Virus record (IMG/VR): IMGVR_UViG_3300034375_009028 | DNA length: 64,000 nt | Direction: 5' to 3' (one strand) | Origin: a virus | Taxonomy: Duplodnaviria > Caudoviricetes | Part shown: piece after piece, positions 37,409 to 43,934 of the stretch | How the letters are laid out: each line of letters begins with the position of its first letter | How positions within the stretch are numbered: the stretch's first letter is position 1 | Made by a program: the position numbers and the translations under genes | The notes under the pieces: model-generated | The model's input: only the letters and a program-made list of their open reading frames with translations | Told to the model about the DNA's origin: nothing | The model's database searches: none

Positions 37409-38062
37409 ATGGATAAAAAAATAACAGTAAAAAAATTTGATGGTAATTACTTTTATAAAGCAAGCAATATTGTTCCAGAATATTTAATTGATAAGTTAGA
37501 ATCCACTTCAGTAGAATGGTTAGAATCTACTAGAAAAGATGTATTCTTCAAAAAATCTGGAGATAAAGATTTCAAAGAAAATAAAGAACATTATCCGCCA
37601 GAAGCATCTTCAGAACTAATATCAAATATGAATGTTAGTTCTAATAATATGTGGACAAACTATTTGTCATCTATTAAAGCACATGTGTTGGAGTATTGTA
37701 AATTAACAAAAACAAAATATCCACTAAAATTAGATTCTACATGGGTTACGAGAGTAGCAGATGTAGATATCCCAGGAGCTTATGATAGGAATCAATTAAG
37801 ATACTTAAGAGAAAATCATAATAATCTTGGAAACATGCATAGTCATAAAGGTAAAAGAATTGGTGTTATATTTTATTTAAAAAATCCAGACCCAAAGTAT
37901 GGAACAGTAATTAGATTAAATAACAATAAAATATTCCAAAATAATGGTGAAGAAAATAGTTTGTTGATATTTAACCCAGAGTTATACCATACTGCAATAT
38001 ACCCAAGTGAAGAAGATTTGCAAAAAAGTCCAAGAATAACAATAGTAACTGATTTTGTTTAA
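37409..38062 (+). CDS. Putative 2OG-Fe(II) oxygenase-fold protein (HxH type); only convincing plus-strand gene
   Basis: MHSH..RIGVIFYL, LLIFNPELYHTA, PRITIV; AATAAATA late box at 37379-37386. Confidence 0.65.
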   Translation: MDKKITVKKFDGNYFYKASNIVPEYLIDKLESTSVEWLESTRKDVFFKKSGDKDFKENKEHYPPEASSELISNMNVSSNNMWTNYLSSIKAHVLEYCKLTKTKYPLKLDSTWVTRVADVDIPGAYDRNQLRYLRENHNNLGNMHSHKGKRIGVIFYLKNPDPKYGTVIRLNNNKIFQNNGEENSLLIFNPELYHTAIYPSEEDLQKSPRITIVTDFV

Positions 38063-38682
38063 GGAAGAATCCAATCTGGCACATGGAATGGTTCATTTAT
38101 ATACCAATCAAAAATAATACAGCATTTTGAATATTGGTTCCTTCTAGGATAATATTGTGTACTTCGATATTTTGTTCCATCAAATATTACTAACCTATTC
38201 TCAAATGTCTTTATGTGATCAGTAGATACTCCACGTTCATTTACTACAATATAAGTATTTGGATCGATATTCTTTAACAAATATATTGATCTTATAAATC
38301 GTTTTTTTACTTGACCTTCAGGGTCTTTTATTTTAGATATTGTATCACTATAACATCTTCCTTTGGTAGATGTTGGTACATTTCTTTCAGCAAAACAAGA
38401 AAACGGTGTGAGCGAGTATTCATCAATTCCACGACTTTTTATGTATGAAGTAACATGCTTTTTAACTTCCAAACAAAATACGTTCCAACAGTTTAAAGAA
38501 TATGGAAAATACTTATCAGAAGTTAAAGCCAGTCCGTGACAATCTATAATAGATTTTGTTATATCAATATAATCAGTAGATAATAAATTAAGAGTCAAAT
38601 GAAGATTGCATTGAATATATAATTCATTTCTGATCTTCTCACTAAAAACATCATCTATAATCAAGAATTTATTTGTTTCCAT
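38059..38682 (-). CDS. Degenerate 2OG-oxygenase-like protein lacking iron ligands
   Basis: LIIDDVFS, RSIYLLKN, ENRLVIFDG and CIIFDW fit the fold pattern, but no HxD/HxH or distal His is seen. Confidence 0.45.
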   Translation of the reverse strand: METNKFLIIDDVFSEKIRNELYIQCNLHLTLNLLSTDYIDITKSIIDCHGLALTSDKYFPYSLNCWNVFCLEVKKHVTSYIKSRGIDEYSLTPFSCFAERNVPTSTKGRCYSDTISKIKDPEGQVKKRFIRSIYLLKNIDPNTYIVVNERGVSTDHIKTFENRLVIFDGTKYRSTQYYPRRNQYSKCCIIFDWYINEPFHVPDWILP

Positions 38683-39493
38683 ATATTTTATTCATATAAT
38701 TGGAAGAATGTAGTGGAGATATTTTTTCAAACATCTTTGTGTTATTTGGACACATAGAACAAACAGGTTCTTCTTGTCTACTAAAAAAATCAATAACCTT
38801 AATGTCACTATCTGTTGGTAGTAATGGTTTATATCTCAAATAAGGATTCCATTTAGATGACAATTTATCTCCATACTTTTGTTTTTGTACTGGCAAATAC
38901 GCAAGTGGCGCACATTTATATATTTTAAAATCATTCAAGGTAAAATTATTTTGACCACCTGGGCAGTTATCCCAAGACTTTTTATAGTCATAAGTACCAA
39001 GTGGCTCTATAGAAGACCCATACCCACTATACGTTTTTAACCAGTAATTAGATGCATCATGAATTCTATAATTCACACCAGATTCAATTATTTTTGAAAT
39101 AGACTTTTCAAATAACCTAACATAATTTAAATCTTTGGAATGCTTTGTTATTGTCAGTATGCATTTATTTTTCTTTAGAGCCTCAGTTAATCCAGGAACT
39201 CTATCAAAAAGAAGTCCATTAGACACCAACTCAAGTTCTTGATCATCTTGAACATCCCAAACTTCTTTGGTCATGTATATTATATCTACAATTTGTTTAT
39301 TGAGTAATGGTTCTCCACCCAACATAGAAAGTTCTAATGGTCTTATTCTCTTATTCCAAGAGAGATACCATTTCTCCAACAAATCTAAACTAAAATTTTG
39401 CCTATAACCATCATTAGTATAATGCCCGCACCCCTGACATGTAAAATTACATGAATGAGTTACGTGCCATTCTAAATGAGATATTGTCAACAT
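38669..39493 (-). CDS. Radical SAM protein with a Cys-containing C-terminal extension
   Basis: CNFTCQGC (CxxxCxxC), GGEPLLN, SNGLL, and C-terminal WDNC..KC..CSMCP (Twitch/SPASM-like). Confidence 0.88.
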   Translation of the reverse strand: MLTISHLEWHVTHSCNFTCQGCGHYTNDGYRQNFSLDLLEKWYLSWNKRIRPLELSMLGGEPLLNKQIVDIIYMTKEVWDVQDDQELELVSNGLLFDRVPGLTEALKKNKCILTITKHSKDLNYVRLFEKSISKIIESGVNYRIHDASNYWLKTYSGYGSSIEPLGTYDYKKSWDNCPGGQNNFTLNDFKIYKCAPLAYLPVQKQKYGDKLSSKWNPYLRYKPLLPTDSDIKVIDFFSRQEEPVCSMCPNNTKMFEKISPLHSSNYMNKIYGNK

Positions 39494-39507
39494 TGTTTTA
39501 TGAAAAT

Positions 39508-39533
39508 AAAAAAAGGGGGATGGTCAATCCCCC
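39508..39533 (-). terminator. Rho-independent terminator
   Basis: GGGGGAT-TGACC-ATCCCCC followed by T7. Confidence 0.85.
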
Positions 39534-39755
39534 AGAGCACATGCACGCCACCAATTTTATTATTTTAGATGATAAATTGGAAAACATCCACACGGAAGGG
39601 GATTTTTTCGGTGTAACCACCACTAAATTTTTGACTGGAATTTAGAAACCAGGCGGGAGTTATCCCATCCGCACCAGGGTTTTTAACGTGTCTCCATCAC
39701 GGGCATTTTTTGGGAAGACTCCACCAGTACTGTTATAGTCCATCCGTGACTCAAG
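39534..39755 (-). ncRNA. Structured RNA resembling the cyanophage manA RNA motif
   Basis: Intergenic and rich in short stems, with four UGGUG elements. GAGTCACGGATGGAC..ACTGGTGGAGTC, CCCTGGTGCGGATGGG and CCCCTTCCGTGTGG match my recollection of manA RNAs. The position just downstream of tRNAs also fits. Needs an Rfam check. Confidence 0.65.
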
Positions 39756-39758
39756 TTT

Positions 39759-39986
39759 TTAAATAGCTTCTACAGAAGAAGTAATTTCTTCCATATCTTG
39801 ACTAATATAATCGATTAGAATTTCATAATCATCCATAGGATCACCAGAGAAGACAACGCCCTCATTTTCATAAAAACGTCGAACCTTTTTATACAACTTT
39901 GGATTTTTTACATCCAAATAAAAATCACCATTTGCTGCTGCTTGAAGAGTTTGAATGTCTTTTTTGAATTTAGTGATAAGAGTCAT
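39759..39986 (-). CDS. Conserved cyanomyovirus hypothetical protein; start revised to MTLITKFKKD
   Basis: YLDVKNPKLYKKVRRFYENEGVVFSGDP.DDYE; the longer ORF would overlap the tRNA. Confidence 0.75.
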   Translation of the reverse strand: MTLITKFKKDIQTLQAAANGDFYLDVKNPKLYKKVRRFYENEGVVFSGDPMDDYEILIDYISQDMEEITSSVEAI

Positions 39987-40038
39987 TGTCTTGAATGTTG
40001 ACCTTAAAGTATAATGTCTAGGGTAAATAATTACCCTA

Positions 40039-43219: not shown

Positions 43220-43248
43220 ATTATAACAGACAAATATTATCTTGTCAA
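43220..43248 (-). promoter_or_regulatory. Sigma70-type early promoter
   Basis: TTGACA-17 nt-TATAAT upstream of tRNA-Val. Confidence 0.88.
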
Positions 43249-43903: not shown

Positions 43904-43934
43904 GAAAATACCAAAAGTATTTGATCTATTTATA

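Follow-up and report, generated by a model that had tools for sequence, protein, structure and literature searches.

Gene context

The DNA analysed here, referred to as the window in the following, is a 64,000-nt stretch from an uncultured T4-like cyanomyovirus. Among isolates, Synechococcus phages come nearest to it, each covering at most about one-fifth of the queried stretches. On the minus strand, a structured RNA lies between a small open reading frame (ORF) and a gene for a radical SAM protein, in the following setting:

39759..39986, minus strand: 75-aa ORF (PHROG 552), with its stop codon 8 nt before the RNA
38669..39493, minus strand: radical SAM gene, 274 aa (Pfam PF04055), the first gene past the terminal hairpin of the RNA
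38059..38682, minus strand: 207-aa ORF of no assigned family, overlapping the radical SAM stop codon; the last gene of the putative read-through unit
37409-38062, plus strand: 217-aa ORF with a weak 2OG-Fe(II) oxygenase PHROG hit, convergent with the 207-aa gene

The radical SAM protein carries a CxxxCxxC motif near its N-terminus, and its start is conserved in the related loci L050 and L205. The 217-aa ORF breaks an otherwise all-minus glycan island, sitting between the radical SAM unit and gmd. Since this convergent ORF intervenes, gmd and fcl, which lie 2 kb away, fall outside any unit that would be read through from the RNA.

On the upstream side, a minus-strand sigma-70 consensus promoter near 43228 feeds a unit of tRNA genes and small ORFs that ends at the terminal hairpin. 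This promoter, located just before the tRNA-Val gene, is a perfect consensus (TTGACA, 17 nt, TATAAT with an upstream TG). Between it and the glycan genes, the hairpin is the sole strong minus-strand terminator; in the entire 64-kb window, only three strong hairpin-plus-U-run sites are found on this strand, namely this hairpin and those at 46082-46058 and 28500-28481. At the head of the tRNA cluster (46082-46040, minus strand), an 8-bp hairpin with a U-run is directly followed by TGTATAAT, forming a terminator-promoter junction, and three T4-late-type TATAAATA boxes lie inside the cluster at 43934, 43136 and 42836 (minus strand). Like the sigma-70 promoter, these boxes feed the unit that ends at the terminal hairpin.

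Family and architecture of the RNA

The initial annotation had described the element as a manA-like RNA, a family label that is wrong. In a scan with the Rfam covariance models, the stretch 39702-39609 (minus strand) matched the wcaG family (RF01761) with 60.4 bits (E 9.5e-9), well above the gathering score of 42, and a second, weak wcaG match of 15.9 bits, spanning a further module of the RNA, was obtained at 39588-39479. By contrast, manA (RF01745) gave no match in 39300-40000, even at E <= 10, and nothing at the gathering threshold across the 64-kb window. The two families have a general resemblance, both being orphan riboswitch candidates from the same 2010 survey that occur in the same phages, and the window RNA is likewise a cyanophage orphan RNA near tRNA genes; it has, however, no match to manA in sequence or structure, and we regard the probability of its being a manA RNA as negligible.

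The wcaG family is an already known orphan. In the 2010 survey (Weinberg et al., 2010; PMC2864571), it was graded as a certain RNA, with cis-regulation and a riboswitch nature both considered probable, and its two UGGYG motifs were proposed as possible sites for a dimeric protein (supplement of the same study). Genome papers that appeared later merely repeat this account, and the literature since 2010 describes neither a ligand nor an expression platform for wcaG.

Across 39680-39514, the terminal hairpin included, the window RNA has about 78% identity to the phages S-PM2, S-RSM4, ACG-2014e and S-CAM4; the conserved stretch therefore exceeds the Rfam model by far. Two scans of viral contigs, one for an invariant tail and one for the core motif, yielded 132 distinct wcaG cores, which come in two forms. 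In short forms, the tail follows directly after helix P3, whereas long forms, among them the window RNA and those of S-PM2 and S-RSM4, possess an inserted module of about 60 nt with an invariant C-rich segment and a pseudoknot (P4/P5). The window RNA thus belongs to the long forms of wcaG; it measures about 250 nt (approximately 39751-39503, minus strand) and is built of the following parts, listed 5' to 3' and all on the minus strand:

39737..39751: 5' hairpin 1, 4 bp with a 7-nt loop (helix 1 of the alignment: 96% of cells paired, three of four pairs changed on both sides)
39722-39726: UGGUG no. 1, reached through an A-rich linker after hairpin 1 (sequence reading)
39687..39701: small hairpin 2, 4 bp with a 7-nt loop, built as hairpin 1 (sequence reading)
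39609..39702: catalogued wcaG core RF01761 (covariance-model match)
39664..39676: motif UGGUGCGGAUGGG with UGGUG no. 2 (invariant in the alignment)
39654..39667: P2 hairpin of the core (helix 2 of the alignment: 99% of cells paired, almost without variation)
39623..39652: core pseudoknot, CUGG/CCAG (39652-49 with 39638-35) interleaved with P3 (39645-40 with 39628-23)
39610..39622: UGGUG no. 3 and a 4-bp hairpin (GGUG with CACC), lineage-specific to the window and L050
39594..39604: C-rich segment AAUCCCCUUCC, the proposed antiterminator strand (alignment and folding)
39551..39588: third module, a pseudoknot of P4 (39588-85 with 39571-68) and P5 (39580-74 with 39557-51)
39538..39552: invariant 15-nt tail, overlapping UGGUG no. 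4 (39553-39549) by the last four bases of UGGUG
39515..39533: terminal hairpin, 7 bp with the loop UGACC (folding and relatives)
39503..39514: U7-A-U4 tract (sequence reading)

Hairpins 1 and 2 are each followed by an A-rich linker and a UGGUG. Hairpin 2 (39701-39687) occupies the place of the Rfam helix P1, which in the Rfam alignment is poorly paired and contains non-standard pairs; accordingly, that alignment places no canonical P1 directly 5' of UGGUGCGG in the window RNA, and some wcaG hits are without P1 according to the authors of the family. P2 and P3 are present together with the conserved flanking UGGYG motifs (UGGUG at 39676 and 39622), and CCCCUUCC is nearly invariant among long forms, S-PM2 being one of the lineages in which the C-rich segment does vary.

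The window RNA thus shares with the catalogued family a core above threshold, the invariant 13-nt motif, P2, P3 and the UGGYG repeats, as well as the T4-like cyanophage setting with sugar-nucleotide genes nearby. It differs from it in the small 4-bp hairpin that replaces P1, in the third pseudoknot module between P3 and the tail, and in running on into a conserved hairpin outside the 98-position model. Its next genes also differ, being the radical SAM gene and the 207-aa ORF, with gmd following only after the convergent ORF; members of the family are expected in cyanophage or marine DNA ahead of exopolysaccharide or high-light genes.

We assessed the structure in an alignment of 28 long forms against 500 shuffles. 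The native fold with both pseudoknots is paired in 93.7% of cells, compared to 86.0% in the shuffles, and has a covariation score of 0.227, compared to 0.089, with none of the 500 shuffles being as good in either measure; when the structure is slid by one to three columns, only 35-56% remain paired. The CUGG/CCAG helix and P3 of the core are 100% and 99% paired, with changes on both sides in two of four and five of six pairs, respectively. P4 and P5 are 96% and 97% paired with compensatory changes, and their interleaved topology is the same as that of the core pseudoknot. The folding energy of the whole RNA is unremarkable (z = -1.49), so that the evidence for a structured RNA is the covariance-model hit and the covariation, which bear out the earlier view of a structured orphan cyanophage RNA.

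Likewise, the four proposed UGGUG-containing modules are all present. Their UGGUG 5' ends lie at 39726, 39676, 39622 and 39553, and the four copies compare with 0.78 expected from the minus-strand rate over the whole window (Poisson P = 0.008). The accompanying suggestion that the repeats may be protein-binding sites agrees with the one already published for wcaG.

A coding or leader-peptide reading of the region was rejected, as L050, the closest relative, differs by an indel of net one base and does not preserve the 41-codon frame at 39623-39498. In S-RSM4, a hypothetical CDS of 37 aa (SRSM4_042; L002:2457-2570) has been annotated that falls wholly within the wcaG RNA, where the Rfam hit spans 2474-2568; this CDS is probably no real gene. 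In the RefSeq record of S-PM2, about 1.5 kb upstream of the wcaG RNA (L001:989-2474) carry no annotated feature.

The 75-aa ORF was considered as a dedicated partner of the RNA. We rejected it, as its homologues, which lie near wcaG RNAs in many phage contigs, are no more than syntenic neighbours at variable distance. In L138, L205, L211, L221 and others, a single small wcaG-type hairpin module follows the PHROG 552 gene directly and immediately precedes the start codon (ATG) of a small ORF, likely for a membrane protein; further modules lie behind this ORF, so that modules and mini-ORFs are interleaved.

The terminal hairpin and the gap before the radical SAM gene

The terminal hairpin pairs 39533-39527 with 39521-39515, giving 7 bp, five of them G-C, around a 5-nt loop, with a predicted energy of -11.1 kcal/mol in isolation. 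U7 (39514-39508) follows directly, and then A and U4. This is the canonical shape of an intrinsic terminator, a G+C-rich hairpin with an immediate U-run, and just 14 nt separate the end of U7 from the radical SAM ATG (39493), as had been noticed from the sequence.

The earlier remark that this gap holds no promoter is equally accurate, since a consensus scan of the 14 nt returned no sigma-70-like site. Sigma-70, leaderless and late promoters in the gap were each rejected, either because key -10 bases are absent or because transcription would start downstream of the conserved ATG. What had been observed at this locus is therefore correct on the minus strand in everything but the label 'manA-like': the feature is real and correctly located, and the terminator is genuine in form. 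The switch proposed along with it is a different matter, and finds no confirmation when relatives are compared.

Alternative pairing of the hairpin

The switch was proposed on the basis of an upstream strand that could take the 5' arm of the terminator. Indeed, AAUCCCCU (39604-39597), within the C-rich segment, can pair with GGGGGAUU (39533-39526) over 8 bp with one G-U, and the two folds exclude each other. They are predicted to be nearly isoenergetic, with -69.2 kcal/mol for the antiterminator and -70.0 kcal/mol for the terminator fold, a difference of 0.8. In the predicted ensemble, the terminator has a probability of 0.68 and the antiterminator of 0.31, values that shift with the chosen 5' boundary; for a transcript that still lacks the 3' arm, the predicted probability of the antiterminator helix is about 0.99. 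By these predictions, the RNA has a mutually exclusive alternative helix of comparable stability, which is one feature of a riboswitch-type expression platform.

Such folds are what one would expect of a regulated attenuator, in which a ligand, protein or tRNA bound to the wcaG modules would stabilize the helix between the C-rich strand (39604-39597) and the G-run, block the terminator and let the polymerase enter the radical SAM gene. This is in essence the model of the initial annotation with the family corrected. Further observations speak for it, apart from the promoterless gap. The C-rich segment is invariant in the long-form alignment and without a partner in the hairpin state, as a switch would predict. 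It occupies the place that the P2 3' strand has in the core, and with the long-range helix the third module would be complete. The alternative pairing is also predicted more often for hairpins with a U-run and no tRNA gene (6/8) than for tRNA-linked ones (12/47; Fisher P = 0.011, from only about five lineages), and the 5' arms are G-rich in 97% of wcaG-adjacent terminators, compared to 59% of other hairpins.

The comparison of relatives, however, speaks against this model. When the antiterminator was examined for covariation, as had been suggested, none was found in the 28 relatives: its pairs are formed in 77.5% of cases, compared to 77.3% in shuffles, of which 285 out of 500 are as good. There is no register preference either, since sliding the strands by +1 column improves the pairing to 86%. 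Changes in the 5' arm, such as G to A, are compensated by the 3' arm of the hairpin and not by the C-rich segment, and across the relatives the eight pairs amount to nothing beyond a C-run facing a G-run. Moreover, the G-rich arms are no more complementary to the core, or to the 3' strand of P2, than those of control G-rich hairpins. An antiterminator in short forms was tested by comparing each RNA's own arm (-10.18 kcal/mol) with swapped arms (-9.83 +/- 0.17 kcal/mol); at P ~0.02, uncorrected for relatedness, the difference is too weak given how related these sequences are, and we rejected this candidate.

An antiterminator helix is therefore plausible but unproven by comparison, and we consider regulated attenuation a possible, if rather unlikely, explanation. 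What stands of the claimed explicit expression platform is the terminator shape, the gap free of a promoter and the exclusive folds; set against it are the lack of covariation in the pairs and the family-wide occurrence of the hairpin.

T-box leaders pair a UGGN sequence with the NCCA end of a tRNA. With these and with riboswitch platforms, the window RNA has in common a hairpin with a U-run, an upstream strand able to take its 5' arm and UGG motifs. It differs from them in that the alternative helix shows no covariation, in having no known ligand and no specifier-like element, and in that this hairpin, in other wcaG RNAs, usually stands ahead of tRNA genes or of an independent promoter.

The hairpin in relatives

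The terminal hairpin is found throughout the wcaG family; its stem varies with pairing kept, while the loop stays UGAC. Among 63 distinct hairpin-bearing long forms, 47 have a tRNA gene 3-8 nt downstream (43 Gly, 4 Leu). In S-PM2 and S-RSM4, for instance, a tRNA-Gly gene begins 3-4 nt past the stretch that matches the window. The hairpin is thus a conserved end element of wcaG RNAs that mostly abuts tRNA genes, which argues against its being a platform for the radical SAM gene and, more generally, against the attenuator model. Among the 47 tRNA-linked hairpins, 21 carry a U-run of at least 4 directly before a tRNA gene without a promoter of its own, and hairpins of this kind must therefore often be read through, or be regulated.

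Another eight of the 63 long forms have a U-run but no tRNA gene, and five of these continue with a late-promoter-like AATAAATA box. A direct fusion of the hairpin to the start of a radical SAM gene occurs only in the window and in L050, which represent one lineage. In L033, L103, L139, L247, L308 and L205, a AATAAATA box lies 15-25 nt after the hairpin and U-run, an arrangement that looks like a late promoter behind a terminator. The window retains only a truncated box of the AATAAATA type after its hairpin.

In short forms, the hairpin is commonly combined with a promoter. A -10 box lies within 15 nt of the hairpin in 60 of the 69 short forms that adjoin protein genes, and in 53 of these 60 a TTGCAT, TTGACA or TTTACA hexamer is found exactly 17 nt upstream of the -10 box, inside the loop of the hairpin, whose stems have 8-13 bp. 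As the -35-like hexamer is thus held in the loop at a fixed distance, the terminator overlaps a sigma-70 promoter for the next gene in these forms. The short forms in L120-L235, for example L145, L176 and L199, have the -35-like loop hexamer 17 nt before TATAAT. A promoter of its own for the downstream gene is accordingly seen in most short-form relatives, though not in the window; a separate start had been named as an outcome that would speak against the switch.

These junctions resemble the PeSL, composite terminator-promoter cassettes of T4-like phages (PMC2839356, PMC4122927). As in PeSL, the stem-loop at the end of short-form wcaG RNAs holds the -35 box for an early promoter in its loop, and what lies downstream of the wcaG end element differs widely between loci, as would be the case at shuffling junctions. 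The window differs in that no acceptable -10 box follows its -35-like loop, which leaves it without the composite of loop -35, 17-nt spacer and -10 past the U-run, and in that its hairpin is fused to the start of an ORF. The wcaG composites also differ from generic gene boundaries: in the 2.2 Mb of loci examined, 56 of the 68 composites of hairpin, U-run and -10 box come right after a wcaG tail, and we therefore rejected a reading of the short-form terminators as generic cassette boundaries.

The tRNA adjacency, which implies processing into a discrete RNA, and the frequent promoters of the short forms would also fit a free-standing, stable RNA that acts in trans or sponges a protein. Its hairpin would serve only to define and stabilize the 3' end, and the radical SAM gene, which is normally independent of wcaG, would use an unrecognized start with no link to the RNA. 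The published proposal of protein sites in the UGGUG repeats is in line with such a role. In the window, however, the 14-nt gap is too short to hold a sigma-70 or late promoter with its start site ahead of the conserved ATG, the late-promoter-like box of L205, L033 and L139 is truncated, and the RNA has no known trans target; we regard this explanation as unlikely. Short-form wcaG RNAs are non-randomly associated with sugar-nucleotide genes (as also reported by Weinberg et al., 2010; PMC2864571), which hints at a link in cis.

Relatives of the radical SAM gene

The proposed gating of the radical SAM gene by the RNA can also be viewed from the side of the gene. A protein search supplied 20 relatives of the radical SAM gene. 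A wcaG RNA within 1.5 kb upstream is seen in just one of them, L320, which belongs to the lineage of the window and shares its contig with L050. An Rfam scan of 18 of the 19 others returned no wcaG hit upstream of the gene, and in 18 of the 19 the sequence looks coding right up to the gene. With 18 of the 20 relatives lacking an upstream wcaG RNA, the gene normally does without one, and a dedicated radical SAM regulator was rejected. In L205, which was found separately, a short-form wcaG RNA, a terminator and a late-like box precede the radical SAM gene. Considering this arrangement and the general lack of wcaG RNAs before this gene, the junction in the window looks like a product of shuffling that lost its promoter, as far as sequence comparison can tell.

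The L205 contig, a cyanophage contig which has about 25 tRNA genes, also contains a strong match to the cyanobacterial permuted tmRNA at 665-928 (RF01851, 113 bits; RF04321, 87 bits).

Complementarity to host tRNA ends

Since UGGUG can be read as the complement of CACCA, we compared the motifs with tRNA ends. The 13-nt motif (39676-39664, minus strand) is a perfect Watson-Crick complement of the mature 3' end of the host tRNA-Leu, covering the CCA, the discriminator base, the whole acceptor strand and two bases of the T-stem. In a host set of genomes G001-G102, the matching tRNA-Leu acceptor end or pair is found in 101/101 genomes of the picocyanobacterial family, and the reversed pattern, used as a control, has almost nothing in the host genomes. 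A rough estimate puts the chance of such a match at 6e-4 (13 UGG sites x 45 tRNAs / 4^10). In relatives, the motif of a sister module complements tRNA-Pro(CGG) over 11 nt. The other three UGGUG sites and the tail of the window RNA gave only random coding hits in the host genomes and no long match to a tRNA end, and the 13 phage tRNAs of the window have no long match to the motifs. The tRNA-Leu match may stem either from function or from descent from an antisense tRNA fragment. That wcaG modules are sensors or binders of host tRNA 3' ends is a speculative idea to which we assign a low probability.

Discussion

Given these observations, the interpretation that had been attached to the locus is partly supported: the RNA, the terminator shape and the exclusive folds hold up, whereas the manA assignment, a dedicated platform and covariation of the switch do not. 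With moderate confidence, we favor the explanation that the hairpin belongs to the RNA itself as its 3' element and closes the tRNA/wcaG unit as a leaky terminator, such that the two downstream genes would need read-through.

By this explanation, transcription of the tRNA-cluster unit would yield the wcaG RNA as its final product. In tRNA-linked relatives, cleavage by RNase P would leave the hairpin as the 3' end of the RNA. In the window, shuffling of cassettes may have fused a U7-bearing hairpin to the radical SAM gene, which normally follows another ORF. Fused directly to this gene, the hairpin with its U7 would act as an intrinsic terminator of the tRNA/wcaG transcript, and the radical SAM and 207-aa genes would be reached only by read-through transcripts. 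With the C-rich segment competing against the 3' arm for one and the same G-run, this termination is probably partial, and nothing shows a ligand that sets the balance between the folds.

Not everything fits easily with a leaky terminator. The 21 tRNA-linked hairpins with a U-run, the invariance of the C-rich segment, the bias of the alternative pairing toward U-run contexts and the association with sugar-nucleotide genes all count against it. By analogy alone, the wcaG RNA can be likened to the stable RNAs C and D of the phage T4 tRNA cluster, which are small, structured RNAs of unknown function that are co-transcribed and processed with tRNAs.

Taken together, the window and roughly 200 relatives show that the 98 nt catalogued so far make up just one portion of a modular RNA. 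The wcaG RNA always ends in a conserved hairpin that usually meets a tRNA gene or its own promoter, and this argues against a simple control from a 5'-UTR. The window is one of the few natural fusions of the hairpin to an ORF without a promoter in between, which makes it a convenient template for studying whether wcaG RNAs control termination in the first place. Finally, the complementarity to tRNA-Leu provides a concrete candidate partner for wcaG. If the match were indeed functional, an uncharged or damaged tRNA end docking on the motifs could tip the balance between terminator and antiterminator where the phage tRNA cluster ends, and read-through into phage tRNA or auxiliary genes would be coupled to the state of the host tRNA pool.
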